Source of the DNA: a virus
Taxonomy: Duplodnaviria > Caudoviricetes
DNA: 64,000 nt
Reading direction: 5' to 3' (one strand)
Virus record (IMG/VR): IMGVR_UViG_3300029288_000085
Coordinates: 32,001 to 96,000 of that record
The position numbers and the translations under genes are program-made. Positions 20,947 through 64,000 of this stretch are shown here, piece after piece. Below the pieces are notes generated by a model that saw only the letters and a program-made list of their open reading frames with translations, ran no database searches and had not been told where the DNA came from. Position 1 is the stretch's first letter. Every line of letters starts with the position of its first letter.

Positions 20947-21304
20947 ACAGCCTACTAATTATACTTGTGGGCAGACATGTGTTGCAATGTTAGCTGGAAT
21001 CACAGTTGAAAAGGCTATTGAAGTAGTAGATAAAAAGGGAGACACTAGTGGTAACGATTTAATAAAAGCATTAAATAAACTGAACATTAAATGTTCAGAT
21101 AGATTAGAGAGATCAAAGGGAAAACTTCCAAAATTAGCTATTATAAAATATACTTGGAAGAATAGAATCAAAGAGGGTAGTCATTGGATTTTATGTAATA
21201 ATGGTAAATTCTATAATCCTTATTATGGAGTCTTGGATTCACCATTTACAAATGACTCTTATAATTGGCAAAAGATAGTTTCTTATATTGAGATATACAA
21301 ATGA
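20933..21304 (+). CDS. Peptidase C39-like protein
   Basis: QPTNYTCGQTCVAM, SHWI, YNP. Confidence 0.7.
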   Translation: MKILKQPTNYTCGQTCVAMLAGITVEKAIEVVDKKGDTSGNDLIKALNKLNIKCSDRLERSKGKLPKLAIIKYTWKNRIKEGSHWILCNNGKFYNPYYGVLDSPFTNDSYNWQKIVSYIEIYK

Positions 21305-22234: not shown

Positions 22235-22969
22235 ATGTATAAAATTCTTATTTTCTTGGTTTCATTTTTATTTATTTTTGGTGCATGTGCAACCTTTAAC
22301 ACCCAAAAAGGAATTCCTGGTACAACACACAATGTTAAAATAACAGTTGAGTCAGCTAATGATAGTAATGTAAATATTGAAAAAGATAAGATAGTTAAGA
22401 CACAACAAATTCCATATAGTGAACCTGAGTTTAAACCACCTACATTCCAGTTAGGTGATACTGTTTATATTCCAATTTGGAGTGGAATTGATACAAATGA
22501 TACATTATCTTTATGGAATACAATTAACATAGCAAAGTATAAGAAATTAACAAAATTGTATATTTATATAAATTCAGGTGGTGGATCAGTATTTGCCGGA
22601 TTAGGACTTTCGGATGTATTACTTGCAGCAAAGAAAGATGGATTTGAAATTACAACAGAGGCAAACGGTATAGTAGCAAGTGCAGCAGTTACAGTATTTA
22701 TAGTAGGAGATAAAGGAAAAAGAATTGCAACAAAAGGTACAGTATTTATGCTTCATAGAGGAAAGATGTTTAAACTCTTTTCTGAAGAAACAAAAGATGA
22801 TCTTAGAGCACAGCAAGAAATGTTTGCAATTGTTGATGCTAGATATAATAAACTAATTTCAGATAGTTCCAATCTTTCAGAACAAGAAGTAGAAAATAAA
22901 TGTAATTATACAACATGGTTCACAGCAGATGAAGCTCTTGAATGGGGATTAGTTGACATAGTAAAATAA
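22235..22969 (+). CDS. ClpP/S14-like protease with lipoprotein leader
   Basis: INSGGGSV, ASAA, FMLH, WFTADEALEWGLVD; N-terminal FGAC lipobox. Confidence 0.8.
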   Translation: MYKILIFLVSFLFIFGACATFNTQKGIPGTTHNVKITVESANDSNVNIEKDKIVKTQQIPYSEPEFKPPTFQLGDTVYIPIWSGIDTNDTLSLWNTINIAKYKKLTKLYIYINSGGGSVFAGLGLSDVLLAAKKDGFEITTEANGIVASAAVTVFIVGDKGKRIATKGTVFMLHRGKMFKLFSEETKDDLRAQQEMFAIVDARYNKLISDSSNLSEQEVENKCNYTTWFTADEALEWGLVDIVK

Positions 22970-44300: not shown

Positions 44301-46662
44301 CAGACATTACTGCTCTAAGTGATGTACCAGCAATAGAAGCATCAACACCTCTGTCAACCATTGTTGCCAACAATGCTGTGGTTTCCTGCAAATTTACGTT
44401 CAATTGTGGTGCAACACCTGTTACATATTCTAATGATGTAGCTAATCCTGTCATATTGAGCTTAGACACATTTATACTTGTTGCTAAGATATCTGTTATT
44501 TTCTTTGTATCAGTAGCACTAAGATTCCATGCCTTCAAAATGGAAGTTACTAACTCAGAAGTTTTTGCAAAGTCAAATAACGTGGCTGTTGCTAATTTAG
44601 CAGTGTCTGTAATAACACTTAGAGTTTCATTTACGGTAAGACCAGCTTGTGCAAATACACCCATTCCTTTTGCTATTTCTAGTGAAGAAAATTTAGTAGT
44701 ACTACCTAATTCCATTGCAGTCTTAGCCAATCTAACTAAGTCTTGATCACTTGCTTGAGAAACAGCTTGTACATTCTTTAATTCTTGACTTAACTGAACA
44801 GCACCCTGTAAGGCATCCGAAAAACCACGATATAATGCCCATGCACCACGAAGTTGCAAGAACCATCTTCCTCTATTTACTAACCATTCTGGGCTTAAGA
44901 ATTTTTCTACTCCACCTCTTTGTGTTGCAGCATATTCTTTAGTCAATTTTCTCAATTCAATTTGCTGTCTTTGATCTAATTGGATACCCAAAGCTTTACG
45001 AGCATTTAATTGTTCCATTACAATTTGATTGTTCTTAAGAACATTGATTCCTAGTTCTCTTTCTGCTCTAGCTCTAGCTTCAACAACAATTGATTCACGG
45101 TATAACTTTGCTCTATTTCCAAGTATCAACGTCTCGTCTTTAGCAATTTTTAGTCTTTCATTCCATTCTTTATTTCCTACAGACACACTCTCTTTTTTTT
45201 GTTGCTCACTAAGTTGAATGCCCAAAGCCATCTTAGCATTTAAACTATCTCGAATAACAGCAGAATTCTTTTCTACATTAATACCAAGTTCTCTTTCTTT
45301 TCTAGCTCTTGCTTCTTTTAAAGTTAAGTCTTCCAGTAATTTATCTCTATCTTGTAATATCTTATTATCTTGAGTAGAATATGTTAATTTGTCTTGAAAA
45401 CTAAGACTAGATAATTTACCATACTCCATTGCTAACTTTCTTACTTCATCTGCTTCTTGTTGAGTAAGTTTTGCTCCCATCTTCATTCTTTCTTCTAATT
45501 CTTTAAGAATGAGGTTAGCATTCTTCTCTACATTAATACCTAATTCACGTTCTTTTCTTAATCCATCTAATCTGATTTCTTGTTCTGCAATGGCGGCATT
45601 ATATTTCTCAGTAGCTACAACTTCATCTGTTGCTACTTCTGTTCTTTTCTTGACTTCACCTGTAGAAACTCTAAATGCACTTTGCTTATCTATTGTTGTA
45701 GGTGGAAGTATTTTACCTTGTCTTATACCAGTTAAACTCACACCTTCCTGCAAAGCTTTATTATACTGTTGCCTGATAAGGATAGCATTTTTCTCTACAT
45801 TAATACCTAATTGCATTTCTTTCCTAGCTTGGGCTTCTTTTATTGCCATTTCTTGCAGTCTAGTATTACGTAGTTCTAGTATTCGTTCTTGGTTTCCAGC
45901 TTGAGATAGTTCTTCTTTAAATTCTAGTTGCTTTTGAGTTTCAAACGCAAGTCTTAACTTTTCACCTAGTGCTTCGTAGCTAACAATAGATTTTGGTCCT
46001 ACCCTGTCATAAAAGGTAGTTAAGATAGTGTTTAGTTTTGCTAATTTTTGTGCTGCTATATCACTTGACATTGCAACATTATTTCGAAGATCCTCTGATA
46101 GGCCAGTTAGAAATTTCTTATTTTTGGTATCAACTTGTGCTAATTTAGTTAATTCGCCTGAGAGATCAAATTGGGATAATTCTTGACGAGCTTTTCCAAT
46201 AGCCTTTCGTTCTACAGACATATCATCTGTTGGTTTAAAGTTTCTATCAAGTTCTTGTTGTTCCGATGAGGTAGTTAGTCTGTATTGTGATACCTGTTGT
46301 AGCATAGGTATCTTAGAAGCTAGACCTTTTAGAACTGACAGTTGTTGTGCTAATCGTTTATAATCTTCTGCTAGTTTATTAGCACTCCTGCCTGATTGTG
46401 CTGCAAACTTACTCATTGTACTATCAACTTCAGTTATATCATGTTTCCAACTATCAAATACTGAGTTGAGTTTGTTACGGGCACTATCCATATACTTCAA
46501 GGTTTTCTCGAATGGATCACCTTGAATAAGAGAGGCTAACTTAAGATTTTTGATGCCAACTTGAAAGGATTTTAGTGTCTGTTCAGCATTCTTTATACCA
46601 GCGTCAAGTTTGGATAAGTCTACACCAACAAAAATATTTACACCTGGACCAACAGTTGTCAT
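41359..46662 (-). CDS. Tape measure protein
   Basis: 1767 aa, helical; TP901-type core (ELGSTTKFSSLEIAKGM...AGTSLR). Confidence 0.9.
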   Translation of the reverse strand: MTTVGPGVNIFVGVDLSKLDAGIKNAEQTLKSFQVGIKNLKLASLIQGDPFEKTLKYMDSARNKLNSVFDSWKHDITEVDSTMSKFAAQSGRSANKLAEDYKRLAQQLSVLKGLASKIPMLQQVSQYRLTTSSEQQELDRNFKPTDDMSVERKAIGKARQELSQFDLSGELTKLAQVDTKNKKFLTGLSEDLRNNVAMSSDIAAQKLAKLNTILTTFYDRVGPKSIVSYEALGEKLRLAFETQKQLEFKEELSQAGNQERILELRNTRLQEMAIKEAQARKEMQLGINVEKNAILIRQQYNKALQEGVSLTGIRQGKILPPTTIDKQSAFRVSTGEVKKRTEVATDEVVATEKYNAAIAEQEIRLDGLRKERELGINVEKNANLILKELEERMKMGAKLTQQEADEVRKLAMEYGKLSSLSFQDKLTYSTQDNKILQDRDKLLEDLTLKEARARKERELGINVEKNSAVIRDSLNAKMALGIQLSEQQKKESVSVGNKEWNERLKIAKDETLILGNRAKLYRESIVVEARARAERELGINVLKNNQIVMEQLNARKALGIQLDQRQQIELRKLTKEYAATQRGGVEKFLSPEWLVNRGRWFLQLRGAWALYRGFSDALQGAVQLSQELKNVQAVSQASDQDLVRLAKTAMELGSTTKFSSLEIAKGMGVFAQAGLTVNETLSVITDTAKLATATLFDFAKTSELVTSILKAWNLSATDTKKITDILATSINVSKLNMTGLATSLEYVTGVAPQLNVNLQETTALLATMVDRGVDASIAGTSLRAVMSELLKPTDAFRREVANLGLNLRDVDPQVYDFISILETLKKAGWGVENSFRAFDRRAAAGMTILVQTSDGLRKSADAMYEHNRASATAAIQTETLSTAWQQFTSDLVSGTYVLLRDVEPALIALVAGVRTLSSVLSAILSPIAQIIGGWGELIRWLDKGDNVIEKIGNDALVFKKLRDDIKTVEEGYYRLRDSFREYEQAILYSKTLKGKEAEAALKNAYNLAKQSEEITEEELELYKGQDEIIQKIIQGRHEEKIKGQLATIQKATIDATKAHDRLISMINSTYATVYDKSTEKMKELGQGYDTLSKSSRELETTVNALGIITEETNENLSISFKDMMDIAKLAGVINKDELKKIVSAYPGFQKRILDSWDTFTKEEKEQLQRNAPAIEELLLKEPKVTPGTTLRKGIQENLDKIRPPKKLKEGIELTQQERMERLKTEAEIAKEEIQSLKLASQREKKEEMTDENYRSELENIEAIYKKEKKLATLNLSIRQQDDAGKKDITELTRLNNWKYKNELKGLKESYDQQKRGVQVKWEGTKLQEIARKTEQDTLDIESQRIRMYVGDTTLEDRLNMELKTIDAQIAGKEEALKFISLDEKKTKEKEQLENDLQQLRNKRFVAEREIGREVKITNKNYEEENVSLDLRIKQLKAEQAVAPPTERLAIEQEMLDLRREMVYKVAVDEMKDDNERLNALKEMNNILLEQLGLTERIKRANDPVYDAYKNIKEQVLSTNQFLSKLISETSTQFAEGIAGVTFDITGGFQEQEQEIINLEGELQQLRVDYDAAIAEGDAIKVKNITNEMSRLNEEISDLKNPITQIGEMFRVFFKDLVDATRKAILQWLAMKAVMAGLSYFGGDTVSTGMTAEGINPYLQTVKGQGGILPHIESFKKFSRGGLTRGNTLALLGDNKSGRELVIPQENIREDSVSGYMRDSQTPIQVLNIVTPDDIAGAMTTSMGKRVIVNTIGRDMQNKGSTFRSYNV

Positions 46663-49380: not shown

Positions 49381-50319
49381 TCATTTACATTGCATATCAG
49401 ATAGTTTACATCCTTCTATGCTATGTACTTTTCTCTCACATTCTTTGCATAATGTTATTCCCATATCTACATCAGCACTTTCTATAGGATTCCATCTTAT
49501 GCCTTCTTTGTGATGAGCTATAAGATTTTCTGTTGAACCACATTTAGTACATTTATAACCATCACGCTCTTTTACCATTTCAGACCAGTCATGTTGATCT
49601 GGTCTTTCATTTTCATTCAGCCTAAACCCTTTAGGATATTTCTTTTGGTTAAATATAGAACAACTTTTCTTGCACTTGACAGAACAATAAAAATGGTTTT
49701 CACTAGTCGTAGTTCCATTAATTGATCTTAATCTATTTTCTACTGAGGTTCTAGTTGGTGTATACCATTTTTTGCAATTAGCACATCTTACTTGTAATAT
49801 ATTTTTTTCTTTTGGGTTTTCCCTAATTTCTTCACAAAAAGAAATTTGACTAGAATATGTATTAAACCATGCTAAATTTCTTTTAGATACACCATTTTTC
49901 CAATTAGGATGATTTTCTTCTCTGAATTTACCTATCATAATTTCACTTAATTTTTTTCGGGTTTCTCTAGATACAAACTTTCCCTTTTGGGCAATACTCA
50001 TCTTTACTTTGGTTTCTTTAGATGTTGGTTTAGTTCTAATTTTCTTTAGCCCTTTTTGTGCTAATCCCATCCGAATCTTAGTTTCCTCAGATCTGATTTT
50101 ACCTTTATTACCATAACTAATTTTTGCTTTAGATTCATCACTAAACCTTTTACATTTCAAGCTACAAAATCTTCCACAACTATTTCTTGGAGCTAAAAAC
50201 GGTTCTCTACAAGTTTCACAAGAATCAATATATGTATATCGGTTATTAGTAATTAAATCCTTCCAATATCCTTTTCTATAATATCTTAAATTTTCTATAT
50301 TTTCCCAAGTAATTTTCAT
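49381..50319 (-). CDS. Zn-finger/NUMOD3 HNH endonuclease (family copy 2)
   Basis: SEETK repeats, NHPNWKNG, RDGYKCTKCG...AHHKEG...ITLCKEC. Confidence 0.8.
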   Translation of the reverse strand: MKITWENIENLRYYRKGYWKDLITNNRYTYIDSCETCREPFLAPRNSCGRFCSLKCKRFSDESKAKISYGNKGKIRSEETKIRMGLAQKGLKKIRTKPTSKETKVKMSIAQKGKFVSRETRKKLSEIMIGKFREENHPNWKNGVSKRNLAWFNTYSSQISFCEEIRENPKEKNILQVRCANCKKWYTPTRTSVENRLRSINGTTTSENHFYCSVKCKKSCSIFNQKKYPKGFRLNENERPDQHDWSEMVKERDGYKCTKCGSTENLIAHHKEGIRWNPIESADVDMGITLCKECERKVHSIEGCKLSDMQCK

Positions 50320-52560: not shown

Positions 52561-53586
52561 TTAACATCTTCCGATCCGAATATTCTTGCGTATATATCTA
52601 GACAATAATTTTTTGGCTAATGAACATATTGAAGTCTTTTCAGATGAAGATCCATCACCAAAACTTACAGCTACATCTCCTATTGCTACACTTCTAGCTC
52701 CTAAATCTTTGTATGTTGAAAGTGTTTCAATCTGTTGGTTTTCTGCAATGAAAAGAGTCTGTTCACTCTGTGCATCTTTTATATCTTTAGATAGTGGAAA
52801 AAATAACTTGAATTGAGAGTTAATTGTAGGAGACGCTGAAAACGATGATTCAAGTGTTATAGATCCGGTGGTTACATTTGATTTACTGATATTTCTTATT
52901 TCATAAAGTGGAGTACCAGTAGTTATATGTATAGTACCTTTTGCAAAAAAATTGGTTGGATATTCATTATAAGTAGATGATTTCAATGTGGAATTTCTAA
53001 AGGAACTAGTTGTAAATGGGGTTCCACAGTTACCAGTTTTTACTTCATGATCATCTCGTGGAAATTGTAATGCTTGTGAATCATAATATTTCTGACCAAT
53101 AAAACTAAATGAATCTATTTCTTTTGCTGATTCAATTAGTAGTCTTTTTTTACCTTCAACATCCAAAGTATCCCACTTATTATCATGCCCATACTTATTT
53201 CTGATATAATCATTTGCTTCCTTTAAAGTGATATATGAATTTGCACTCATATCACCTAAATTCGTATTTAATGTAACATTTCCAAACACTTCACAAGTTA
53301 TATATTTTATATATCTATCTCCAGTGCTAGTCTTTGCACGAATTTTAATCGAATAAGTTTCACCAGTTACTCCTCTATTGAGTCTAAATTTACCTGTTCT
53401 TGGAGAACTTGCAGAAACATTAGACATCATACTGGCATTTTTAGACACATTGTTGTTATCATAAATAGATGCCCAACAACTAGCAATAGTATCACCAGAG
53501 GGAAATTCGTTTGTAAAGTCGTACTTTACATTGAATATTTCTGCTGGATACTTATATAACCAAGAATTTTCATAGGTAAATTTCAT
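52561..53586 (-). CDS. Head-tail connector with extra N-terminal (fibre-adaptor-like) and inserted domains
   Basis: ANSYITLKEANDY...LIESAKEID..FIGQK...QALQFPR...DIKDAQSE...AKKLLSRY; N-terminal KYPAE...YDF....GDTIAS. Confidence 0.7.
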   Translation of the reverse strand: MKFTYENSWLYKYPAEIFNVKYDFTNEFPSGDTIASCWASIYDNNNVSKNASMMSNVSASSPRTGKFRLNRGVTGETYSIKIRAKTSTGDRYIKYITCEVFGNVTLNTNLGDMSANSYITLKEANDYIRNKYGHDNKWDTLDVEGKKRLLIESAKEIDSFSFIGQKYYDSQALQFPRDDHEVKTGNCGTPFTTSSFRNSTLKSSTYNEYPTNFFAKGTIHITTGTPLYEIRNISKSNVTTGSITLESSFSASPTINSQFKLFFPLSKDIKDAQSEQTLFIAENQQIETLSTYKDLGARSVAIGDVAVSFGDGSSSEKTSICSLAKKLLSRYIRKNIRIGRC

Positions 53587-53599
53587 TTGACATACTTCC

Positions 53600-55810
53600 T
53601 TATTTAAATGTTGTTTTCCTTTTATTGGATATAAAGCTTCTAGATCTCGTTATAATTAGACTAGATGACTTTCTTATTTCTGCAAAATTTCTTGTTCTTT
53701 CTAAATCATTAAATTCATATCTGAATACATCATATGATGAACTTTGTGAACTAGAGCTAGAAGACTTTGAGCTAGATGATTTAGAACTAGAAGACTTAGA
53801 GCTAGAAGACTTTGAGCTAGACGACTTAGAACTACTGACAGAGCTAGAACTTTGTGAACTAGAGCTAGAAGACTTAGAACTAGACGACTTAGAACTACTA
53901 ACAGAACTAGAACTTTGTGAACTAGAACTAGAAGACTTAGAACTACTAACCGAACTAGAGCTAGAAGACTTAGAACTACTTTGTGAGCTAGAACTAGATG
54001 ATTTAGAACTAGACGACTTAGAACTACTAACCGAACTAGAGCTAGAAGACTTTGAGCTAGAAGACTTAGAACTACTTTGTGAGCTAGAACTAGATGATTT
54101 AGAACTACTTTGTGAGCTAGAACTAGAAGACTTAGAACTACTTTGTGAGCTAGAACTAGAAGACTTAGAACTACTTTGTGAGCTAGAACTAGATGATTTA
54201 GAACTACTTTGTGAGCTAGAACTAGATGATTTAGAACTACTAACCGAACTAGAGCTAGAAGACTTAGAACTACTAACAGAACTAGAACTTTGTGAACTAG
54301 AACTAGAAGACTTAGAACTACTAACCGAACTAGAGCTAGAAGACTTAGAGCTACTAACCGAACTAGAACTAGATGACTTAGAGCTACTAACCGAACTAGA
54401 ACTAGATGACTTAGAGCTACTTTGTGAGCTAGAACTCTGTGAACTAGAACTAGAAGACTTAGAACTAGATGATTTAGAACTACTAACAGAACTAGAGCTA
54501 GAAGACTTAGAACTACTAACAGAGCTAGAACTCTGTGAACTAGAACTAGAAGACTTAGAACTAGATGATTTAGAACTACTAACAGAACTAGAGCTAGAAG
54601 ACTTAGAACTACTTTGTGAACTAGAACTAGAAGACTTAGAACTAGATGATTTAGAACTACTAACCGAACTAGAACTTTGTGAACTAGAGCTAGAAGACTT
54701 AGAACTACTAACAGAACTAGAACTTTGTGAACTAGAACTAGATGATTTAGAACTACTCTGTGAACTAGAGCTAGAAGACTTAGAACTACTTTGTGAACTA
54801 GAACTAGAAGACTTAGAACTAGACGACTTAGAACTCGACGACTTAGAACTACTAACAGAACTAGAACTCTGTGAACTAGAACTAGAAGACTTAGAACTAG
54901 ATGATTTAGAACTACTGACAGAGCTAGAACTCTGTGAACTAGAACTAGACGACTTAGAACTACTAACCGAACTAGAGCTAGAAGACTTTGAGCTAGAAGA
55001 CTTAGAACTACTTTGTGAGCTAGAACTAGATGATTTAGAACTACTTTGTGAGCTAGAACTAGAAGACTTAGAACTACTAACCGAACTAGAGCTAGAAGAC
55101 TTAGAACTACTTTGTGAGCTAGAACTAGATGATTTAGAACTAGATCTACTTGAACTTATACTTGAAGAACTTTTACTAGAAGATGATTTACTTGAACTAG
55201 ACTTAGAACTAGATGATTTAGAACTACTTTGTGAGCTAGAACTAGAACTAACAAAAGTACCCCCGCCAAAATCATCAATTCTAAGATTAGTTCCATAACA
55301 ACATAGTCCGATATATCCAGCAGACCCATAAGTTGAATCTGTTGTGGATAATTTTTCAGTCCATGCTCCTCCTGTGTAATAATAAGCTTTTAAGGCTGTA
55401 CCTATCGCCGAAAGTCCAATTTTCTCCCCACTGGCTACATTCTGAGTCGTAGTTGCTAAGGTTGTCCATCCACCATTAAGCATCTCGTTGATGTCCCATG
55501 TGTCAGGAGAATCATTCAGATTTATATCTAAAATATATCCATCGCAAGTACCAATGTTTAAGGTTGTAGTTCTAATTGCAAGAGATACTTCATCATTAGT
55601 TACAGTGGATATAGTTGCAAAGACTTCGGAAGCAGCCCCAAATGTTGCAGTGTCCCAAGCTCCAACATTAAGGGCACCAGCAGTTCCTCCTGTACACGCA
55701 TTACTCTGAATCTTAAGTGTATTGAGCATATTCGTCCAATTCGCATTGGGCGGGGTGGTATTATTCGCACCCGTGAATGTTTCAATTACACCAGTAGTAG
55801 GAAATGCCAT
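53600..55810 (-). CDS. Serine-rich repeat protein: ~185-aa globular domain, ~500-aa Ser stalk, short basic C-terminus
   Basis: Translation; TAATG-type coupling to the upstream gene; flanked by - strand structural genes. Confidence 0.85.
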   Translation of the reverse strand: MAFPTTGVIETFTGANNTTPPNANWTNMLNTLKIQSNACTGGTAGALNVGAWDTATFGAASEVFATISTVTNDEVSLAIRTTTLNIGTCDGYILDINLNDSPDTWDINEMLNGGWTTLATTTQNVASGEKIGLSAIGTALKAYYYTGGAWTEKLSTTDSTYGSAGYIGLCCYGTNLRIDDFGGGTFVSSSSSSQSSSKSSSSKSSSSKSSSSKSSSSISSSRSSSKSSSSSSQSSSKSSSSSSVSSSKSSSSSSQSSSKSSSSSSQSSSKSSSSKSSSSSSVSSSKSSSSSSQSSSSVSSSKSSSSKSSSSSSQSSSSVSSSKSSSSKSSSSKSSSSSSQSSSKSSSSSSQSSSKSSSSSSQSSSSVSSSKSSSSSSQSSSSVSSSKSSSSKSSSSSSQSSSKSSSSSSVSSSKSSSSKSSSSSSQSSSSVSSSKSSSSSSVSSSKSSSSKSSSSSSQSSSSQSSSKSSSSSSVSSSKSSSSSSVSSSKSSSSSSVSSSKSSSSSSQSSSSVSSSKSSSSSSVSSSKSSSSSSQSSSKSSSSSSQSSSKSSSSSSQSSSKSSSSSSQSSSKSSSSSSQSSSKSSSSKSSSSSSVSSSKSSSSKSSSSSSQSSSKSSSSSSVSSSKSSSSSSQSSSSVSSSKSSSSKSSSSSSQSSSSVSSSKSSSSKSSSSKSSSSKSSSSKSSSSSSQSSSYDVFRYEFNDLERTRNFAEIRKSSSLIITRSRSFISNKRKTTFK
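53735..55249 (-). repeat. Mosaic coding tandem repeat (SSSK / SSSSSSQ / SSSSSSV units)
   Basis: Units such as GAAGACTTAGAACTA, CTTTGTGAGCTAGAACTA and CTAACCGAACTAGAGCTA recur across ~1.5 kb. Confidence 0.95.
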
Positions 55811-56319
55811 TAGCTGTTCGCTACCTCATCATCAGTTGCATCAATACTTTTTGTTGGTCGTGTATCACCATCAACTACTAATTCTCCACTTGTAGTATCT
55901 AATCTAGGAGTTAGTCTTCTTCTAGCAGCAAATCTTAAGACATCACCTAAAGTTTTTTCTCCAATATCACTTCCAATATTATCTCTAATCTCTTGTAGAG
56001 GATACCCCATATTTCTAAGTTTATTTACAATCGTACTTTTCTGTTGTGATGTGAGATCAGATAATGAATGTGACAACATATTCTTAGGTAATCGTATAAC
56101 TCCTGTTAATGCAGCTATAGCATTCAAAGTCTGATCAGATGCCCGTATTTTAGCAATTATTACATTTCCAAGAGCTTCAGATCCCGCCCAAGCTCCACCA
56201 TCTCCAAAAATCTGACTTGATAATTCTAAGAATTTTGGTCTTCTAGTCCATTTTGGAAATCCGTTTGGATCAGGATTAACCCATATAGTATAAGGTGCTA
56301 TAAACCATGCTACAGACAT
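55810..56319 (-). CDS. Hypothetical protein coupled to the Ser-rich gene
   Basis: SD GGGGAA; stop overlaps the next start. Confidence 0.6.
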   Translation of the reverse strand: MSVAWFIAPYTIWVNPDPNGFPKWTRRPKFLELSSQIFGDGGAWAGSEALGNVIIAKIRASDQTLNAIAALTGVIRLPKNMLSHSLSDLTSQQKSTIVNKLRNMGYPLQEIRDNIGSDIGEKTLGDVLRFAARRRLTPRLDTTSGELVVDGDTRPTKSIDATDDEVANS

Positions 56320-56345
56320 TGTAGAATTCCCCCTTTTAAATATTA

Positions 56346-57047
56346 CTATGCTAAAATATAATATTTTCTCAACAAACTGTCGAGACGTTCTGATACTGAA
56401 ACAATACCAGTATTCTTTCTATTCAACCTATGAATTTCCCAAGCAATCCTACTAAGCGGATTCATATGAGAAACTAAGATAGGCTTTTCAGCTCTTTGTC
56501 CTCTTTCTTTATAACCAGAACATCCTACATTATAGGTAGAATTGATTATAGTTACTCTATCTCTAACTGTGGATGACTTTAGAATTTTATTAAGGGTTGG
56601 TTCTTCTTTATTCTCACCCTTTGAAATAATAGTTGTTATAATGTTTATTATATCTTTTGCTGCTGGATATCTCCAAAATACACTTCCACCATTTAATTTA
56701 GGATTACTGTATGTTGCAATTCCTACATCTTTTATTTCTGGTGGATCGAACTTATAATTTTGCCAACAATCTAGGTCTTGACTCCATATGATGTTATCAT
56801 TAATAAGATTTTCAAAAATCCACAGTAATGCAAACATCTTTGACCCAGTTAAACAATGTTTATTCAATTCTATATTATTTGCACTTACTCCCATAAATTC
56901 AAAATCAAAATTACTCACTAAGATAATATCCTTCTTATTCCATTCTAATTCAATCATGTTATCTATCTGTGCTTTTAAATTAGTGATTATATTTTCTTTT
57001 GAATAACGACCTTTTGATTGCACGTTTGCAACCATTAATCTTTTCAT
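56346..57047 (-). CDS. GT-A fold glycosyltransferase-like protein
   Basis: SKMF, QDLD (DxD), NGGSVF, EEPTLN, YNVG. Confidence 0.6.
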   Translation of the reverse strand: MKRLMVANVQSKGRYSKENIITNLKAQIDNMIELEWNKKDIILVSNFDFEFMGVSANNIELNKHCLTGSKMFALLWIFENLINDNIIWSQDLDCWQNYKFDPPEIKDVGIATYSNPKLNGGSVFWRYPAAKDIINIITTIISKGENKEEPTLNKILKSSTVRDRVTIINSTYNVGCSGYKERGQRAEKPILVSHMNPLSRIAWEIHRLNRKNTGIVSVSERLDSLLRKYYILA

Positions 57048-57895
57048 ATATCTATCTCTTGCTCAAAATTCTTAATAAGATGTGCCTTACCCCAATGTTG
57101 ATTCATATTTGCTTTAAATTTTTTACAAGCAATATTACAAAGTGAAATTAAAGCATTTCTTCTCTGGGTATACTTCCAATCTTTATCAGGATAGTTATCA
57201 ATAAAATGACGTTTATGATGTTCTACTACTTGACAGAAATCACCAGTGAACTTTGTTATTGTAAATCCCAAATGGTATGCTCTACACAGAATATCCTCAT
57301 CATCAAATCCATAAGCAGAACCGAAGGATTCATCGTAGCCTCCTAAATCATCAATAAATCTACTTTTGAAAAATCCTAATCTTCCTCTATTTGTTTGCTT
57401 ACTCTTAATAAAGACTAGTTTGTCAGTATCAAACTGATTAGCTATTTCATTTATTCTTTTCGAAAATCCAAAAAGGGTTAAATGATCTGCATCAACATTA
57501 TTGACTATATCTCCTGATGCAATTTTGAAAGCTATGTTTCGTGAGTGTGTCATACTATAGAACTTTGGTTCTATTGTTTTATAGTAATTCAAATAACCTT
57601 CTTTAATATATTCTGACAACTCATGCTTAACAAAGTCATCCATATCATCATTACTGTTATAGTTCAATAATACAAACTCCGTATTTGGGTACGTTTCAAT
57701 ATTATCAATTAAATTAGTAACATATGTTTTTTTAAGATCATAAGTTCTTCCCATACACGTAGTGCAAATTGAAATCTTATATTCTTTTCTTATTGGATTT
57801 ATAAATTCTGGTAAAACATACTCAAGGTTGAAATACTTTTCCCACACGTCTTCATTAGTCAAACCTAATAAGAAATCATCTCTCATCCTCATCAT
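57044..57895 (-). CDS. GT2-family glycosyltransferase
   Basis: ISICTTCMGR, SRNIAF..ASGD, VDAD, GGYDE...YGFDDED. Confidence 0.85.
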   Translation of the reverse strand: MMRMRDDFLLGLTNEDVWEKYFNLEYVLPEFINPIRKEYKISICTTCMGRTYDLKKTYVTNLIDNIETYPNTEFVLLNYNSNDDMDDFVKHELSEYIKEGYLNYYKTIEPKFYSMTHSRNIAFKIASGDIVNNVDADHLTLFGFSKRINEIANQFDTDKLVFIKSKQTNRGRLGFFKSRFIDDLGGYDESFGSAYGFDDEDILCRAYHLGFTITKFTGDFCQVVEHHKRHFIDNYPDKDWKYTQRRNALISLCNIACKKFKANMNQHWGKAHLIKNFEQEIDI

Positions 57896-58410
57896 AGTTT
57901 AGTTGCCCACACACAATCCTCTAACAGTGTAATATTGTTACCAAATAATCTATCTATCACTACAGCTACATCCTTATGTCTTCGAGAATTATAGTCATGC
58001 CCAGACAATATACCATCTTTTCTGATATGAGGAATCCAAGCAATGATATCCCGTTCTAATGCTGCCATGGAATGATCTGCGTCTATATAAACCATGTCAA
58101 AATATTCTAGTGGAAATATACTTGCTGCTTCAACAGATTCCATCCTTAAAACTTTCAAAGCAGAAAAATATCTCATTAAAGTACAGGCATATTTATATAG
58201 ACTATTCCAATCGTTTGGAGTAAGTCTAGACATACGACCTTTATCACTTCCAAAGAAGCACCACGAATCAATTGCCCAATATTCCTTCACTTGTTTAGTA
58301 TTCTTAAGTACATGTTTTACGGTTTTACTTTTCCATATTCCTACTTCTGCAATCCTTTTACACTTATTATCTAGTATAAGTTTTAATACTGATTCACTAT
58401 GAATTGGCAT
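57892..58410 (-). CDS. Class I SAM-dependent methyltransferase (Methyltransf_24-like)
   Basis: AEVGIW, AIDSW, FDMVYIDADH, GILSGHDY. Confidence 0.85.
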   Translation of the reverse strand: MPIHSESVLKLILDNKCKRIAEVGIWKSKTVKHVLKNTKQVKEYWAIDSWCFFGSDKGRMSRLTPNDWNSLYKYACTLMRYFSALKVLRMESVEAASIFPLEYFDMVYIDADHSMAALERDIIAWIPHIRKDGILSGHDYNSRRHKDVAVVIDRLFGNNITLLEDCVWATKL

Positions 58411-60925
58411 AAATATCTATAATTACCTCATTCCACTTTGCGGGGTCTAAATTAGCTTTTGCCCAATCTTTAGCATTTTGACCCAATGCTTGTCGAAATT
58501 TTTCTTTTCTTATTAATGTACTGAGATGAACTAAACATTCATCATAATGAGTAAAATAGTATCCTGTATCACCATGAATTATTCTATCTTTTGTACCATC
58601 TCTAGGTTCTGAGAGAATTGGCAATCCGGTAGCTAAAGCTTCTGCAATACAACGAGGATAGTTATCTCTCCACATATTACTTGTTCGATATAAATATATA
58701 TGTCCTTTGCTTAAAAATTCTTCTACTGGGATTTCATCCCATTTAAAGAACTTCATCCGTGGTTCATCCTTAAAGAATTCTGCAAGTTCTTTATGAGCTT
58801 CCATAAACCAAAATTGTGTATTCTTAGTATCTTTGAGAAGTCTCTGATAAAATTTAGTATCTAATTCCTTATCAAGATGTTTCTGCCATATATGTATTTT
58901 GCTTCCATTCTTCACAGATTCATTAGTAGTATATTTTCTATAATCTGGAGTACAATGTTTAAGTACTATGAGAGGTTCATCTTTTTCTCTTGGTTTTGTA
59001 CATACCTCGTAGAATTTATTCATATCTATAGCTCCAAATAATACTATCTTCTTCGTATTATCAAATCCAATAACTTGTCTTTCCCATTCCTGTTTCTTCT
59101 CTTCATTTTGAAATATAACTGCCTTCAACTTATTTGATTTGATAAGCCATTCTGAAATATCAGGATTCTTGAGATGACCAAACATATAATTAATGCCTAT
59201 TATAAGTATAGAACATTTATCAACTAATTTCTTACCAGCTTGTAAAAAATCATTTATATTATCGTTACCATAGAATAGTAACGGGGTATTTTCAATACAT
59301 TCAGATATACATCTTCCACCATCGGGCTTGAAACTATAGTTTGATAGGTGTACATTCTTAGATTTTATATCTTTATAATTTTCATGTACACTATCCCAAG
59401 GAAATAATTGGACATCCCACCCTGCATCACCTAATACATCAGCAATCTTAATCAGACTTTGTTCCCCACCACCATGACTACTGAGACTACCTAACAGATT
59501 TATAGATTTAGTTTTTTCAACAATTTCAAAGCTATTAGAAATTTTAATTGCATCATCAGTATTTACTTTATCGCATGCAACACACGTTGTACAATCATCA
59601 CTATCAGAAGCTATGCAATCTCTTCTGTTCATATATGTATAAATATCTCCTTCATAATATCGTTTTATTGCTCTTATGACATCGTCCGAAGTAATCACAT
59701 CCATACACTCTTGGATAGTTCTACCATCAGAAGAAGTTGTACTTTTACATAAATTCTTATTTTGCTTTGGATCTTTAGGTATAGGTATAATCCTAGATTT
59801 CCAACATCCACCATTATCACAACATGTAAATACTCCATTTGTATGAAGAATCTGATGATTACAGTATTCTGTCCACGCTTTTGACTCTCTACCACCTTCT
59901 ATAACTACACAGGGCTTTCTCCCTTTTTCAGTATACTTAGATGGAATTGCTGCTGCAAGATGCATTAACATACTGATACCGCTAATGCAACCATCAGCAT
60001 GATAGACTAGGGAAACTAGTGGTCTCATATTATCATTGAATTTATCAGTCAAATCAATGATATTATTCAACTTTTCTACTAAATGATCACTTCGTCCTAT
60101 AACTACAAATTTTATCTTTCCTTCAAAATGGTCTATGACTTCTTGGAATCTTCTCCAATCCCAAATCTTTGTAGTGGCATCCCGTTTTCCTCCAGGAGCT
60201 ATTAGCCAATACTTATTATATCCATATACCTTTTGTATAAGATCATGTTTCTTTTCATCTTCACTTAAATGAATATCCCCACGTTGTCTAGCAAATGACT
60301 TTCCAAAGTTCTTATATTGATTTACTAATGAGATGAATGGTTCATGAGAATTAGCATTCTTGTCTGGTTTACCAAGACAAGGATCTCCTACTTCACCATT
60401 TGCAAAAGCACTACAGAATTCTCCTAATGACACAGGAAGACTTTTATGTAAATCAGTGATAGCAATCATATCTAATAGAAATGCCATCGTGAAGTGTACG
60501 TATGTATTATTTGCCGACGCAATTGCTGGATATCCAACATCATAATATTCAACATCTTTGTCTTCTTTTTTCAAAGACCTATCTATATATGGATTATTTT
60601 CCCAAATCCAAGGTTGACTACTATCTACATTTATTCTTATATCTGGAAAGAGAAGTTTGAAATCTCTAACCCCTGCACTAAACATTAAGGCATCTCCTAC
60701 TGCTCGTTTATGTGCAAAGATTATTTTTCTATCATTATTATCTGATTCTGTTAAATTCTGAGCCACTTCTTTTTTGAATATTGTATCATCAGGAGTATGA
60801 AGATGTAGATGACCGTCATCAAACTTCAACCCGATCAATACTTGGCTTAAACTTTTATCACCAATTTCTTTTGTTTTGAGTATATCTTCTGCCTCATCTA
60901 GAAGTCTCTGTTTTATCTTATTCAC
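58397..60925 (-). CDS. Two-domain glycosyltransferase (GT9-like + GT4-like)
   Basis: AVGDALM, WENNPYI, KIWDWRRFQ, MHLAAA; GGGEQS, DNYPRCIAEALATGLP. Confidence 0.85.
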   Translation of the reverse strand: MNKIKQRLLDEAEDILKTKEIGDKSLSQVLIGLKFDDGHLHLHTPDDTIFKKEVAQNLTESDNNDRKIIFAHKRAVGDALMFSAGVRDFKLLFPDIRINVDSSQPWIWENNPYIDRSLKKEDKDVEYYDVGYPAIASANNTYVHFTMAFLLDMIAITDLHKSLPVSLGEFCSAFANGEVGDPCLGKPDKNANSHEPFISLVNQYKNFGKSFARQRGDIHLSEDEKKHDLIQKVYGYNKYWLIAPGGKRDATTKIWDWRRFQEVIDHFEGKIKFVVIGRSDHLVEKLNNIIDLTDKFNDNMRPLVSLVYHADGCISGISMLMHLAAAIPSKYTEKGRKPCVVIEGGRESKAWTEYCNHQILHTNGVFTCCDNGGCWKSRIIPIPKDPKQNKNLCKSTTSSDGRTIQECMDVITSDDVIRAIKRYYEGDIYTYMNRRDCIASDSDDCTTCVACDKVNTDDAIKISNSFEIVEKTKSINLLGSLSSHGGGEQSLIKIADVLGDAGWDVQLFPWDSVHENYKDIKSKNVHLSNYSFKPDGGRCISECIENTPLLFYGNDNINDFLQAGKKLVDKCSILIIGINYMFGHLKNPDISEWLIKSNKLKAVIFQNEEKKQEWERQVIGFDNTKKIVLFGAIDMNKFYEVCTKPREKDEPLIVLKHCTPDYRKYTTNESVKNGSKIHIWQKHLDKELDTKFYQRLLKDTKNTQFWFMEAHKELAEFFKDEPRMKFFKWDEIPVEEFLSKGHIYLYRTSNMWRDNYPRCIAEALATGLPILSEPRDGTKDRIIHGDTGYYFTHYDECLVHLSTLIRKEKFRQALGQNAKDWAKANLDPAKWNEVIIDIYANS

Positions 60926-61482
60926 TTCTTAACCTTATAAAAAAGTTCACGCCAAGTATCTAGAGGTAAATCCATAATCCCATTAACCCCAACCATTTGT
61001 TTACGCAATTCTGCTTTTCTGAATATGTTTTCTTCAGTCAAAACTACAGTCAATGAAATATTAAATTTAGAATAATCTGTAACACCATAAAGTAAATGTT
61101 CTACTTTTGTCTGATTACAAATTTTAGATAGGATAATGTTAAGCCAACCTACATCCATACTTAATACTCTTGAAATTCCACCTGTCAATAAATATAAAGA
61201 TAACTGCGTAGTCAACCTAACAATATCAACACTATCTCTCTCATATCCTAAATTGATAATCTTTTTAATATTTAGTTCTTTACCAATACGGAATAAATCA
61301 TCTGACCTTTGTTCATATACAGCAGATTTACAAATATCATCTCTACAAAAAAATATTGGTCTATCATCATCTTTATTTATAACTACTATATCATAAACAT
61401 CTTTAGGAACAGATAGGATAAGACCAGAACAATGTTTAACCCAATCATAAGAATTATTACTAACTATAAGCGACTTGGACAT
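60922..61482 (-). CDS. Divergent PIG-L/LmbE-like protein
   Basis: CSGLI and QRSDDL...ELNI....LGY pattern, but no HPDD motif. Confidence 0.4.
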   Translation of the reverse strand: MSKSLIVSNNSYDWVKHCSGLILSVPKDVYDIVVINKDDDRPIFFCRDDICKSAVYEQRSDDLFRIGKELNIKKIINLGYERDSVDIVRLTTQLSLYLLTGGISRVLSMDVGWLNIILSKICNQTKVEHLLYGVTDYSKFNISLTVVLTEENIFRKAELRKQMVGVNGIMDLPLDTWRELFYKVKK

Positions 61483-61485
61483 AAT

Positions 61486-62496
61486 TTACCTCAAATAGTT
61501 TTTATTATCTGTATAAATATTGCTTGAAATATCAACTTCTGACCACCAATTAGGGTTTTCTTTGTACCATTTGATAGTTTTCTGAATACTCCCTTTTAAG
61601 TTAGTTATTGGGGCAAAGTCTAACTCCTCTTTTATTTTAGAACTATTTATAGCATATTGTCTATCATTTCCTGGACGATTAAATACTTGTTCTATATAAC
61701 TACTCCATAACTCTATGTTATCCTCACCAGTTAATTCCTTCAGCAGTAGCATCAACATATACTTATTAGTACAACGGATTCCACTACCAACATTATAGAT
61801 TTGTCCTACTATCCCCCCATTGAGAACTTTCATAATCCCATTACAACAATCTTGTACATATATCCATTCTCTTTTCTCATTGCCTTCTCCATGTAAGAAC
61901 ATTTTTTCTCCTCGAAGAAATCTAAGTATATTAAAAGGAACTAATTTCTCTGGATATTGTCTTTCCCCCATATTATTTGAAGGGCGTACAATAATTAATG
62001 GAAGATTATATGTTTTATAATAAGACAACAATAAAAGATCAGCAGCAGCTTTACTAGCAGCATAAGGGCTATTTGGAATCATAGGAAATGATTCATCTGC
62101 TTCACCACTATAACTATCACCATATACCTCATCTGTTGAAATATGAATGAATCTTTCTATCCCAAGTTTAAGTGAACAATATGCTAAATTGAATACACCA
62201 AGTACGTCTGTCTTAACAAAATCCATAGGATTAGTAATAGATCTGTCAACGTGAGTCTGAGCAGCAAAATTAACTACAGTATCAATTTTGTGATATTTCA
62301 TAATATCTATTATAGTTGGATCTTCTATTCCAACATATAAAATCTTCTCAAAGTCTACATTCCTGACATTTTTTATATTACCAGCATAAGTCATTTTATC
62401 TAAGATTACCACATTAAACTTGTAGTTATTATATAACTGCTCAACAAAATGACTGCCCATAAAACCACAAGATCCGGTAACAAGTATATTTTTCAC
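61486..62496 (-). CDS. rmlB: dTDP-glucose 4,6-dehydratase
   Basis: GSCGFMG, DKMTYAGN, FAAQTHVDRSI, STDEVYG, YAASK, RPGNDRQY. Confidence 0.92.
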   Translation of the reverse strand: MKNILVTGSCGFMGSHFVEQLYNNYKFNVVILDKMTYAGNIKNVRNVDFEKILYVGIEDPTIIDIMKYHKIDTVVNFAAQTHVDRSITNPMDFVKTDVLGVFNLAYCSLKLGIERFIHISTDEVYGDSYSGEADESFPMIPNSPYAASKAAADLLLLSYYKTYNLPLIIVRPSNNMGERQYPEKLVPFNILRFLRGEKMFLHGEGNEKREWIYVQDCCNGIMKVLNGGIVGQIYNVGSGIRCTNKYMLMLLLKELTGEDNIELWSSYIEQVFNRPGNDRQYAINSSKIKEELDFAPITNLKGSIQKTIKWYKENPNWWSEVDISSNIYTDNKNYLR

Positions 62497-63339
62497 CTAT
62501 TCAATACTTTCTCCTTCCTTTATAAATTGATGATATAATTCATAAAGTTGTTCTTTGGTAAAAAGACATCTACTACTTTTAATTAAGTTTTTTTCTGCTA
62601 ATATTAATCGTAAGTTTATTGGGGAAGCTATAATTTCGGATGGTATATTATTTTCAAAACCTTTGGCAACTGAATATATGTGATCTAAGACATATCCAGT
62701 ACTACCATTTCTAGATCTTTTTAAATTTTGTGAATTTATTAAATAGTAGTACTTTGAAAAATTTATATTAGATAATTTTCTTACTTCAGTTTGGTATACA
62801 CTTGCTTTTTCTAACTCTTCTTTTGAATATTTTTTTTGATTAAATATTGGACACTCATCCTTACATCTTTGAGAGCAGTAAAATCTTCTATCTCCCCTAC
62901 TTTTACCATTTATAACTGCAATTCTTCCTTGAACACTATACCAACTTGGTGTAAACCATTGTTTACATTTTAGACATTTGACTTGTAGTATATTATGATC
63001 TTCTGGATTTCTACGTGTTTCTTCACAGAAAGAAATTTGTGAAGCATATGTATCATACAACGGTAATTTTTTACTACGTACTCCCCCCTTCCAATTTCTA
63101 TTTTTATTTCCTAAAGAATCAATACTTCTTTTTTTTCTATCTTCTTTAGATATATCTTTTCTAGCACAGGAGTTTGAACAATATAAACCAAACGAATGAC
63201 CAGTTGATAAAAATGGTTCCCCACAAATTTTACAAAAGTCAACATACTTATATCTTTCTGACTTGTTTGATTTAGAATACCAATGCCCACTTTTACAGCT
63301 ATATCTCAAATTTTCTAGATTATCCCAACAAATTTTCAT
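62497..63339 (-). CDS. Zn-finger HNH endonuclease (family copy 3, different nuclease domain)
   Basis: MKICWDNL...YDTYASQISFCEE...LQVKC..C...FYCS; C-terminal LDHIYSV..GF...NLRLI...N. Confidence 0.75.
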   Translation of the reverse strand: MKICWDNLENLRYSCKSGHWYSKSNKSERYKYVDFCKICGEPFLSTGHSFGLYCSNSCARKDISKEDRKKRSIDSLGNKNRNWKGGVRSKKLPLYDTYASQISFCEETRRNPEDHNILQVKCLKCKQWFTPSWYSVQGRIAVINGKSRGDRRFYCSQRCKDECPIFNQKKYSKEELEKASVYQTEVRKLSNINFSKYYYLINSQNLKRSRNGSTGYVLDHIYSVAKGFENNIPSEIIASPINLRLILAEKNLIKSSRCLFTKEQLYELYHQFIKEGESIE

Positions 63340-64000
63340 CTATCTCTCATCCTTATAATTATAAACCTTCAACAGAGAAGAAAGTTTTTCAAATAAGTCA
63401 TTAATAGAAAAATCACACACATTAGTAAAGAACCCATTATATATAGTCTCCCAATTCTTGTATAAATCTATCTGAGAGGTATCCAAACCTCTAGGGTATC
63501 TTTCTTTTTGCCCTTCATGTCTAATTCTTTCCCAAGGTTTTAACATAATATCTTCAAAAGGTAATCCTAAAAACTTACACATTTTGTCAGTTTCTAATTT
63601 TATGTTAGTAATTACATCTTCAACCTTTATAGTTAATATATTTCCTGGAAAATTTTTATATAGTTCACAATATATAAAGGCAGCCCAAAACATATCTTTT
63701 ATGTTACCTTTAAAACTTGCATCATCTGCTCTTTTCCATCCTCTGAAGATTTTACTTGCTGCTTGATCAAATGGATGACGAGTAGTCCAAATAATCTTAC
63801 TATCAGGGTTATTTATAAAAAACCTACATACAACATTAAAATTAGGTATGTAGTTAGTATCACACTTTGTTAAATAGTTATGGATATATAATGTATCTCT
63901 CAAAAATAATTGTTTATCTTCGGGATAAGATGAGGGGATCAAAAAAGATGAACCCGAAATAATTTCAAGTATCAAATTTGTCCCAGAACGTCCATTACTT
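63340..64000 (-). CDS. Sulfotransferase (5'-truncated by the window)
   Basis: The frame continues to the window end as SNGRSGTNLILEI (PAPS-binding RSGT); also RHPFDQAASK and KVED...MCKFLGLPF. Confidence 0.8.
   Translation of the reverse strand, partial: SNGRSGTNLILEIISGSSFLIPSSYPEDKQLFLRDTLYIHNYLTKCDTNYIPNFNVVCRFFINNPDSKIIWTTRHPFDQAASKIFRGWKRADDASFKGNIKDMFWAAFIYCELYKNFPGNILTIKVEDVITNIKLETDKMCKFLGLPFEDIMLKPWERIRHEGQKERYPRGLDTSQIDLYKNWETIYNGFFTNVCDFSINDLFEKLSSLLKVYNYKDER

Follow-up and report, generated by a model that had tools for sequence, protein, structure and literature searches.

We analyzed a 64,000-nucleotide stretch of phage DNA (the window) corresponding to bases 32001 to 96000 of IMG/VR record IMGVR_UViG_3300029288_000085. 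The record, whose source is a landfill metagenome, is a complete 144,334-bp siphovirus-type phage genome (direct terminal repeats assigned by IMG/VR; CheckV completeness, 100%). The phage is lytic, and a search of the genome for a tyrosine integrase found none. The right half of the window carries a late siphovirus operon on the minus strand. Within it, at positions 52561 to 64000, lies part of an island of sugar-modifying genes, followed by genes for a small conserved protein (p169), a 736-amino-acid (aa) serine-rich protein (the Ser protein), and a head-tail adaptor. The features of this region, in the direction of transcription, are as follows:

63340-64014, minus strand: sulfotransferase, 224 aa, running 14 nt beyond the window edge (Pfam Sulfotransfer_3, E = 3e-10; Sulfotransfer_1, E = 4e-6)
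62497-63339, minus strand: HNH-like, zinc-ribbon-rich open reading frame (ORF), 280 aa (PHROG 5104, E = 1e-11; weak match to HNH PHROG 1271)
61486-62496, minus strand: RmlB-type nucleoside diphosphate-hexose 4,6-dehydratase/epimerase, 336 aa (Pfam GDP_Man_Dehyd, E = 4e-63; Epimerase, E = 5e-54; PHROG 540, E = 8e-79)
60922-61482, minus strand: 186-aa ORF with no Pfam, PHROG, or NCBIfam match
58397-60925, minus strand: fusion of two glycosyltransferase (GT) domains, GT9+GT4, 842 aa (Pfam Glyco_transf_9, E = 4e-6; Glycos_transf_1, E = 2.5e-6)
57892-58410, minus strand: Methyltransf_24 S-adenosylmethionine (SAM) methyltransferase (Pfam E = 1.8e-10)
57044-57895, minus strand: GT2-family (GT-A) glycosyltransferase, 283 aa (Pfam Glyco_tranf_2_2, E = 1e-8)
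56346-57047, minus strand: GT-A/GT8-like transferase, 233 aa (no Pfam match; assigned by ESM Atlas structure comparison)
55810-56319, minus strand: p169, 169 aa, conserved partner gene of the lectin-domain protein
53600-55810, minus strand: Ser protein, 736 aa, with a lectin-like N-domain, a poly-Ser stalk, and a basic tail
55250-55810, minus strand: N-domain of the Ser protein, aa 1 to 187, a predicted lectin/Concanavalin-A-like beta-sandwich (AlphaFold2 [AF2] predicted local distance difference test score [pLDDT], 90.6)
53735-55249, minus strand: poly-Ser stalk, aa 188 to 692, built of SSSK, SSSSK, SSSSSSQ, and SSSSSSV units
53600-53734, minus strand: basic C-terminal tail of 44 residues (YDVFRYEF...KRKTTFK) plus stop codon, with no family match
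52561-53586, minus strand: head-tail adaptor of Ad1 type, 341 aa (PHROG 477, E = 2e-16; Pfam DnaT_2, E = 2e-14)

All ORFs named in an earlier sequence-only reading of this DNA are present on the minus strand where it had placed them. That reading had also described a tightly coupled, co-oriented run. Gene junctions in 52561-64000 are indeed overlaps or gaps of 0 to 26 nt, no minus-strand terminator-like site was detected within this interval, and promoter-like sites there are no more frequent than in shuffles; the run is even longer than claimed, at about 28 genes. Pfam and PHROG matches bear out the labels given to the sulfotransferase, the RmlB-type enzyme, the GT9+GT4 fusion (GT9-like, about aa 79 to 440; GT4, about aa 471 to 842, by our own hidden Markov models [HMMs]), the methyltransferase, the GT2 enzyme, and the head-tail connector. 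The GT-A label of the 233-aa ORF, which has no Pfam match, agrees with its Atlas model (predicted template modeling [TM] score, 0.87), which resembles bacterial GT8 clusters (TM score, 0.68 to 0.72) and a Nucleotid_trans cluster (0.70); the closest Atlas clusters are 95 to 100% viral, i.e., a phage-specific family.

Two labels fared less well. The 186-aa ORF had been called PIG-L-like but matches no family, and its poor Atlas model (pLDDT, 0.50) resembles the N-halves of GT4 enzymes (TM score, 0.6 to 0.68). It may represent the Rossmann domain from the N-half of a GT-B enzyme, which we offer as a lead only. The HNH label could be kept in part, in that PHROG matches exist but are weak as evidence; the gene is probably a homing-endonuclease intruder and not a pathway member. 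A second HNH/zinc-ribbon endonuclease-like gene lies among the neck and tail genes (49381-50319, minus strand), and both are likely homing elements in the late operon.

The globular head of the Ser protein is predicted to adopt a jelly-roll fold of the Concanavalin-A-like lectin/CBM66/DUF7257 kind. Foldseek matched the N-domain model to the CBM66 structure 4b1m (E = 1.5e-7; TM score by target, 0.73 to 0.77), and other solved matches include legume lectins, VIP36, and a baseplate chain of mycobacteriophage Douge. Sequence identity to the solved lectins is only 10 to 18%. The closest BFVD entries are actinophage minor tail, receptor-binding, and DUF7257 proteins.

Behind this domain, residues 196 to 692 of the stalk (497 aa) comprise 404 Ser (81%), 50 Lys, 23 Gln, and 18 Val, with no Asp or Glu. 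The stalk is encoded by imperfect tandem repeats of 15 to 99 nt with mixed Ser codons (TCT/AGT/TCA/AGC/TCG), and it is the sole strongly Ser/Thr-rich (mucin-like) sequence among the proteins of the genome. The stalk of about 500 residues noted earlier is a real repeat, its exact length coming from a single assembly. A 557-aa ORF on the opposite strand of the stalk (53625-55298, plus strand; LELEDLELL...) was rejected as a mirror artefact of the repeat and is no gene. The 44-residue C-terminal tail is a possible docking peptide, a function we infer. No hydrophobic segment was found in the Ser protein (maximum KD19, 0.84, in the N-domain), and the protein begins directly with the lectin domain (MAFPTT), with neither a signal peptide nor an LPXTG motif, as the sequence-only reading had stated.

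The adaptor that follows is of the SPP1 gp15/HK97 gp6 type both by profile match and by its position at the head/tail junction, and further connector and tail genes continue after it. It carries an added N-terminal domain that matches Pfam Gp77, the fibre-tail adaptor of podophage GP4 (E = 1.4e-7), and that might be where a neck appendage, for instance the Ser fibre, docks.

The window edge truncates the island, which continues for about 15 kb and about 19 further genes to genome position 111,132 (window-equivalent 79,132). As a whole, it comprises about 28 co-oriented genes over about 23 kb (genome 88,346-111,132), which overlap or are a few bases apart. One side is bounded by the capsid gene and six small head-proximal ORFs, and the other by the genes for p169, the Ser protein, and the adaptor. 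The genes beyond the window are as follows:

beyond the window, minus strand: second GT9 enzyme (GT9a), the first island gene, by family match
beyond the window, minus strand: three paralogous GT-B enzymes (Glyco_trans_1_2), one of them fused to Methyltransf_24
beyond the window, minus strand: GT8-like enzyme
beyond the window, minus strand: three more free-standing Methyltransf_24 genes and one Methyltransf_23 gene
beyond the window, minus strand: B12-binding radical-SAM enzyme
beyond the window, minus strand: DegT-type aminotransferase
beyond the window, minus strand: PglD-like hexapeptide acyltransferase
beyond the window, minus strand: FemAB-like protein (weak match)
beyond the window, minus strand: adenosine 5′-phosphosulfate (APS) kinase
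beyond the window, minus strand: four ORFs without a family match

In total, the island encodes nine GT domains and seven methyltransferases (five Methyltransf_24 domains, the Methyltransf_23 enzyme, and the B12-radical-SAM enzyme). Matches to our own GT1, GT2, GT4, GT9, and Methyltransf_24 models are confined to the island within this genome. The fusion of Methyltransf_24 to a GT suggests that sugars are methylated, and the set of dehydratase, aminotransferase, and acyltransferase implies a 4-acylamino-4,6-dideoxyhexose. Since no sugar nucleotidyltransferase gene is encoded, the feedstock would be host nucleotide sugars. None of the 28 island proteins contains a plausible membrane helix (KD19 below 1.6 throughout, except for a single window of 1.71 in Methyltransf_23), and no flippase, polymerase, ligase, or membrane-bound priming transferase is found among them. 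This speaks against export on a lipid carrier; with all island proteins soluble-looking and no export set, a cytoplasmic acceptor is the natural reading. The closest homologues of GT9a (P0020 to P0027, 44 to 63% identical) are often fused, in proteins of 500 to 800 aa, hinting at more GT fusions among uncultured related phages.

We also examined how the N-domain and p169 are distributed. The lectin domain (consensus MAFPTT...PPNANW...DDFGGGT) is frequent in viral and metagenomic contigs, mostly of 1 to 5 kb in the metagenome scan, and has no relatives in GenBank phages. One relative, P0001, is 54% identical and lies on a 22-kb contig. The domain is nearly always N-terminal; it either makes up the whole protein (about 200 aa) or precedes a hypervariable tail. 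These tails include unrelated fibrous repeats, PKD/Ig domains, a glycosidase, a second copy of the domain, and Sipho_Gp37, and at least five family members have Ser-rich (SxSPS)n tails (P0007, L004, L043, L044, and L045). We assign the Ser protein to a phage structural family.

In nine other loci, the p169 gene lies directly upstream of the lectin gene, and in P0002 the two are fused in one protein. The AF2 model of p169 is confident (pLDDT, 92.6), and its fold has no match in the PDB (Foldseek best E = 0.06; VIA wide search, Z < 4). The predicted complex of p169 with the lectin domain reached an ipSAE of 0.92 in three runs, against 0.00 for the best of three controls; the ipSAE mark that we used is reached by 58 of 80 solved complexes and by 2 of 110 mismatched pairs. 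In the models the partners pair through edge strands (residues 110 to 117 of the lectin domain and 20 to 28 of p169); contacts agree between runs to 91% or more, and the pLDDT of the partners is 93 or higher. Synteny, natural fusion, and the predicted complex together support binding of p169 to the lectin domain.

The cassette follows the capsid gene in L003, L009, L025, and L031, and in L004 the lectin domain is fused to a tail-type Gp37. In two high-GC loci with (SxSPS)n tails (L043:491-4710 and L045:1661-3135), a 205- to 208-aa partner (MTVxLYxxPVxHL...) replaces p169; in L043, a second protein of 641 aa follows, 43% of it Ser plus Thr.

Sugar genes recur in comparable places in other phages. 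L032, whose major capsid protein (MCP) is 69% identical, keeps the head gene order and, where its contig ends, carries GT9a (55% identical) at the corresponding place. Another relative (L033; TerL 50% and portal 52% identical) has a Methyltransf_24 gene between terminase and portal (L033:2006-2548, plus strand), and sugar-type methyltransferases appear from sequence to be scattered through the head module in this lineage. The L032 and L033 genes argue that the island is no private, recent insertion.

Three independent lectin loci have GT clusters. In L023 (GC content, 64%), the order is capsid, GT4, GT2, Methyltransf_23, Methyltransf_24, GT2, a 395-aa ORF, and the lectin gene; its capsid protein matches 9lw6 (E = 1e-62), and its Methyltransf_24 is rhamnosyl-O-methyltransferase-like. 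L004 (GC content, 47%) has three GT2 genes followed by p169 and a lectin-(SxSPS)n-Gp37 protein, and the GT2 adjoining its lectin gene is 27% identical to the island GT2 (57044-57895). In L012 (GC content, 52%), a DegT gene and a 1,041-aa GT4-GT2-GT2 fusion lie 3 to 8 kb upstream of the lectin gene. Because our own iterated HMMs were trained on lectin loci and are thereby biased, the enrichment rests on a Pfam-based comparison: GT2 matches above cutoff occurred in 5 of 29 lectin-bearing IMG/VR records (1.07 Mb) versus 0 of 33 others (1.22 Mb), the latter being contigs picked for poly-Ser-coding runs (one-sided Fisher's P ≈ 0.02).

A scan for TCN ×12 returned 80 loci, 44 of which had an ORF with a run of at least 10 Ser; these ORFs are mostly 65 to 300 aa, and none comes near 400 Ser. 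Across the same loci, our sugar-enzyme HMMs found one RmlB-like fragment only, in a giant-virus bin. Neither the GT9+GT4 fusion nor the adaptor gave a match when scanned against IMG/VR, and in pairwise BLAST the adaptor had no significant similarity to the genes behind the lectin gene in L023 and L003. On a 548-kb IMG/VR contig (L103:12-5628), three adjoining ORFs are Ser-rich, with 161 of 277, 117 of 582, and 100 of 560 residues.

Taken together, these results suggest that the region holds the downstream third of a glycan factory that is encoded by the phage, works entirely in the cytoplasm, and belongs to the late head-neck operon, and that this factory glycosylates the virion, a reading to which we assign a probability of roughly 0.55. 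Within it, the stalk is the prime candidate for the O-glycan acceptor, at odds that we place a little short of even. The proposal of the sequence-only reading that the phage glycosylates its own fibre gains from the late head-neck operon, the soluble enzymes, the structural-family fibre, and the recurrent GT clusters, and falls short at a link specific to the stalk. The co-occurrence search that it proposed, for long poly-Ser ORFs with GT clusters, ties the clusters to the lectin cassette and not to poly-Ser.

Several observations weigh against virion glycosylation or against the stalk as its target. The virus is uncultured and comes from a single landfill metagenome, and the reading is drawn from sequence. 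GT2 is absent from all 33 contigs with poly-Ser runs, and in two of the three independent loci with GT clusters (L012 and L023) the lectin protein is the domain alone (208 aa), with no stalk; the glycan genes are thus linked to the lectin cassette or head module and not to poly-Ser. The Ser-rich L043 and L045 have no sugar-enzyme match in their short flanks, and the closest p169/lectin relative, L036, lacks a recognizable GT in the 0.4 kb preceding p169. As to the length of the stalk, the Logan contigs of the source run enter the repeat from its two flanks and end at 53873 and 55218, and between these points that one run offers only over-deep unitigs of 58 to 77 nt (1.5 to 4× depth), with no bridging contig. 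No island GT is assignable to a known protein O-glycosyltransferase family. GT9a in particular scores 19.8 bits against the Aah/TibC model (TIGR04414; cutoff, 200) and was rejected as an Aah/TibC autotransporter O-heptosyltransferase; a 36-sequence profile led instead to WaaF (E = 2e-5) and WaaC (E = 6e-4) in the PDB, where TibC was absent at E values up to 10. The DNA methyltransferase label that PHROGs gives to the Methyltransf_24 family, together with a thymidylate-synthase-like gene and the phage DNA-glycosylation precedents taken up below, also points away from a protein acceptor.

These observations leave room for other targets of the same enzymes. One is that the island glycosylates other virion proteins, such as capsid, decoration, or tail tube proteins, with the stalk serving as a bare spacer like those between the carbohydrate-binding modules of bacterial glycosidases and the p169-held lectin domain binding either the phage coat (as a docking fibre) or a host or environmental polysaccharide. 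The GT clusters beside the stalk-less lectin genes of L012 and L023 fit this arrangement, as do the nearness of the lectin fold to the carbohydrate-binding module CBM66, the constant N-domain with hypervariable tails, which recalls phage-fibre anchor domains, and a precedent for capsid glycosylation (PMC11256854). We nevertheless consider it unlikely: no second virion protein has a Ser/Thr-rich tract, it would be odd for some 400 clustered hydroxyls, encoded 0.5 kb after the last GT, to have no part in the pathway, and in L004 a tail of Ser-Pro repeats occurs together with three neighboring GT2 genes.

Remodeling of the host envelope (lipopolysaccharide [LPS] core, capsule, or teichoic acid), for example to block superinfection or to release progeny from debris, would explain why both GT9 domains resemble LPS heptosyltransferases and why GT8, GT4, and GT2 enzymes, typical of envelope glycans, occur together. 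It is quite improbable, however, given the lack of a flippase, polymerase, ligase, membrane priming transferase, or any transmembrane helix in the 28 proteins. The genome has no integrase, hence no obvious basis for lysogenic conversion; the genes sit in a late structural operon between capsid and adaptor, where surface conversion would be of little use to a lytic phage, and L023 repeats this layout after its capsid gene. A complex glycan on a 5-hydroxymethyl-pyrimidine, i.e., hypermodification of the phage DNA, seems to us very improbable, even though phage GT-A and GT-B enzymes related to LPS enzymes do glycosylate DNA, with mono- to trisaccharides that include heptose on 5-hydroxymethylcytosine and with some clusters near structural genes (10.1101/2023.12.21.572611). 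The thymidylate-synthase-like (ThyA-like) gene just mentioned (21301-22044, plus strand, divergent; Pfam E = 1e-13, C-terminal half only) retains the catalytic Cys and a dUMP-type Asn; it could encode plain ThyA or a dUMP hydroxymethylase, and the latter would imply modified thymidine in the phage. It lies about 35 kb from the island in an early plus-strand module, whereas the genes of DNA-glycosylation pathways usually cluster (10.1101/2023.12.21.572611). Neither a TET/JBP dioxygenase (PF12851) nor a C5 methylase (PF00145) was found in the complete genome, although the absence of PF12851 is weak because the model matched none of the control genomes either. Nine GT domains, seven methyltransferases, and sulfation also go well beyond any known DNA glycan.

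If the island does glycosylate the virion, as we favor, the capsid parts, the sugar pathway, and the p169-lectin fibre would be produced together from the operon late in infection. The enzymes would take host nucleotide sugars as input, and the RmlB-type dehydratase, DegT aminotransferase, and hexapeptide acyltransferase would convert them into a 4-acylamino-4,6-dideoxyhexose. Nine GT domains would assemble the glycan, the five Methyltransf_24 domains, Methyltransf_23, and the B12-radical-SAM enzyme would methylate it, and the APS kinase and sulfotransferase would sulfate it. The finished glycan would then be placed on the virion, with p169 and the lectin-domain fibre (as a predicted complex) closing the operon. 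The head or neck would thereby gain a brush that is hydrated, sulfated, and methylated and that serves as a shield for the particle or as its tether to surfaces. A fuller version, in which the phage makes its own mucin, with a fibre of about 500 Ser O-glycosylated in the cytoplasm by the 28-gene pathway and shown on the head or neck, and in which the p169-lectin cassette is a widespread and hitherto unnoticed platform for coupling self-made glycans to the particles of many tailed-phage lineages, is one that we put forward tentatively and with some doubt.

The rest of the genome is that of a siphovirus-type phage whose best TerL match among GenBank phages has just 34% identity. Upstream, outside the window, are genes for the large terminase, the portal, and a Mu-gpT-like MCP, and the late operon also encodes distal tail and minor tail proteins and an endolysin. 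Among the public runs, a single one contains the region, and no RNA data set is listed for the stretch. Other features in the window include the following:

41359-46662, minus strand: tape measure protein, late operon
35034-39527, minus strand: J-like central fibre, late operon
22235-22969, plus strand: ClpP-like protease, early module
18603-20324, plus strand: class I/II ribonucleotide reductase large subunit, early module
847-1884, plus strand: RecA, early module

To our knowledge, tailed phages were believed to be unglycosylated before 2023, and the known cases consist of a couple of GTs acting on capsid proteins; we know of no virus-made glycan coat at a comparable scale outside the giant viruses. 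Our literature search found no paper on a glycan island within the structural module of a phage that features sulfation or a poly-Ser carrier. If the proposed reading is true, a self-encoded 23-kb pathway that sulfates and heavily methylates would mean that phages are able to build a true glycocalyx. On the fuller, more tentative version, no sulfated glycoprotein would have been described from a bacterial virus before, and the coat would be the phage equivalent of the fibril glycocalyx of Mimivirus. A pathway of this kind would bear on particle stability, on adhesion to mucus or biofilm matrix, on escape from host receptors, decoys, and immune recognition, and on phage-therapy pharmacology. 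The island would also be an enzyme resource (compact soluble GT-methyltransferase fusions, a B12-radical-SAM sugar methylase, and a sulfotransferase with its own APS kinase) with a defined peptide substrate, and the p169-lectin pair, with its confident predicted interface and a fold unmatched in the PDB, could serve as a marker for similar systems in metagenomes.

The serine-rich repeat protein (SRRP) adhesins of Gram-positive cocci (GspB, Fap1, SraP, and PsrP), which depend on GtfA/GtfB and an accessory Sec system, were the analogy drawn by the sequence-only reading. It holds only at the level of function: in both cases a globular binding-type domain is carried on a very long Ser-rich stalk and encoded beside cytoplasmic GTs. 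The Ser protein, however, lacks a signal peptide and LPXTG, and Pfam and NCBIfam scans of the island proteins found no GtfA/B or SecA2/SecY2/Asp, so this locus is not an SRRP system. Its stalk is strongly basic and built of SSSK and SSSSSSQ/V units where SRRPs have SAS[A/E/V] dipeptide repeats, and the protein is viral and intracellular until lysis. Nor does the island resemble a Wzx/Wzy- or ABC-dependent surface polysaccharide locus, whose membrane priming transferase, flippase or transporter, and polymerase or ligase have no candidate among the 28 island proteins. With the phage DNA glycan clusters described by Pyle et al. (10.1101/2023.12.21.572611), it shares GT-A and GT-B enzymes of envelope-glycan origin, sometimes near structural genes. 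Those clusters neighbor 5mYOX/TET or ThyS (plus methylase) genes and build one to three sugars, whereas here there is no TET gene (the weak absence noted above) or C5 methylase, and the ThyA-like gene is distant.

Closer parallels come from glycosylated filaments and virions. The BclA filament of the exosporium nap of Bacillus anthracis is collagen-like and O-glycosylated with rhamnose and anthrose, a 2-O-methyl 4-acylamino-4,6-dideoxyhexose (PMC9614988). Like the proposed Ser fibre, it is a repeat filament that receives its sugars within the cell that makes it, among them a methylated 4-amino-4,6-dideoxy sugar formed by a dehydratase, an aminotransferase, and an acyltransferase. It differs in its GXT collagen repeat, its trimeric form, and its place on a spore, and has no sequence relation to the island proteins. 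In Che8-type (cluster F1) mycobacteriophages, phage-encoded GTs are reported to add glycans to the capsid proteins (Freeman et al. 2023, as described in PMC11256854). The likeness lies in phage-encoded, cytoplasmic GTs acting on the phage's own structural proteins to form a glycan shield, there with about two GT genes near the genome end and capsid targets. Here, nine GT domains belong to about 28 genes in a head-neck operon with nucleotide-sugar tailoring, seven methyltransferases, sulfation, a mucin-like fibre, and a lectin cassette.

Mimivirus makes its own UDP-Rha and UDP-Vio4NAc with gene clusters, and its fibrils bear methylated (2-O-methylation) N-acetyl-viosamine glycans (PMC9614988). 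The shared elements are a virus-encoded 4,6-dehydratase, pyridoxal phosphate-dependent aminotransferase, N-acetyltransferase, methyltransferases, and GTs, which in Mimivirus number about ten or more genes and place glycans on long capsid fibrils (PMC9614988). Mimivirus is a eukaryotic giant virus of an unrelated lineage, for which neither a poly-Ser carrier nor sulfation is described, and the enzymes are related at the family level only. By analogy of function, the island nonetheless appears to resemble the Mimivirus fibril glycocalyx more than it does Che8-type glycosylation.

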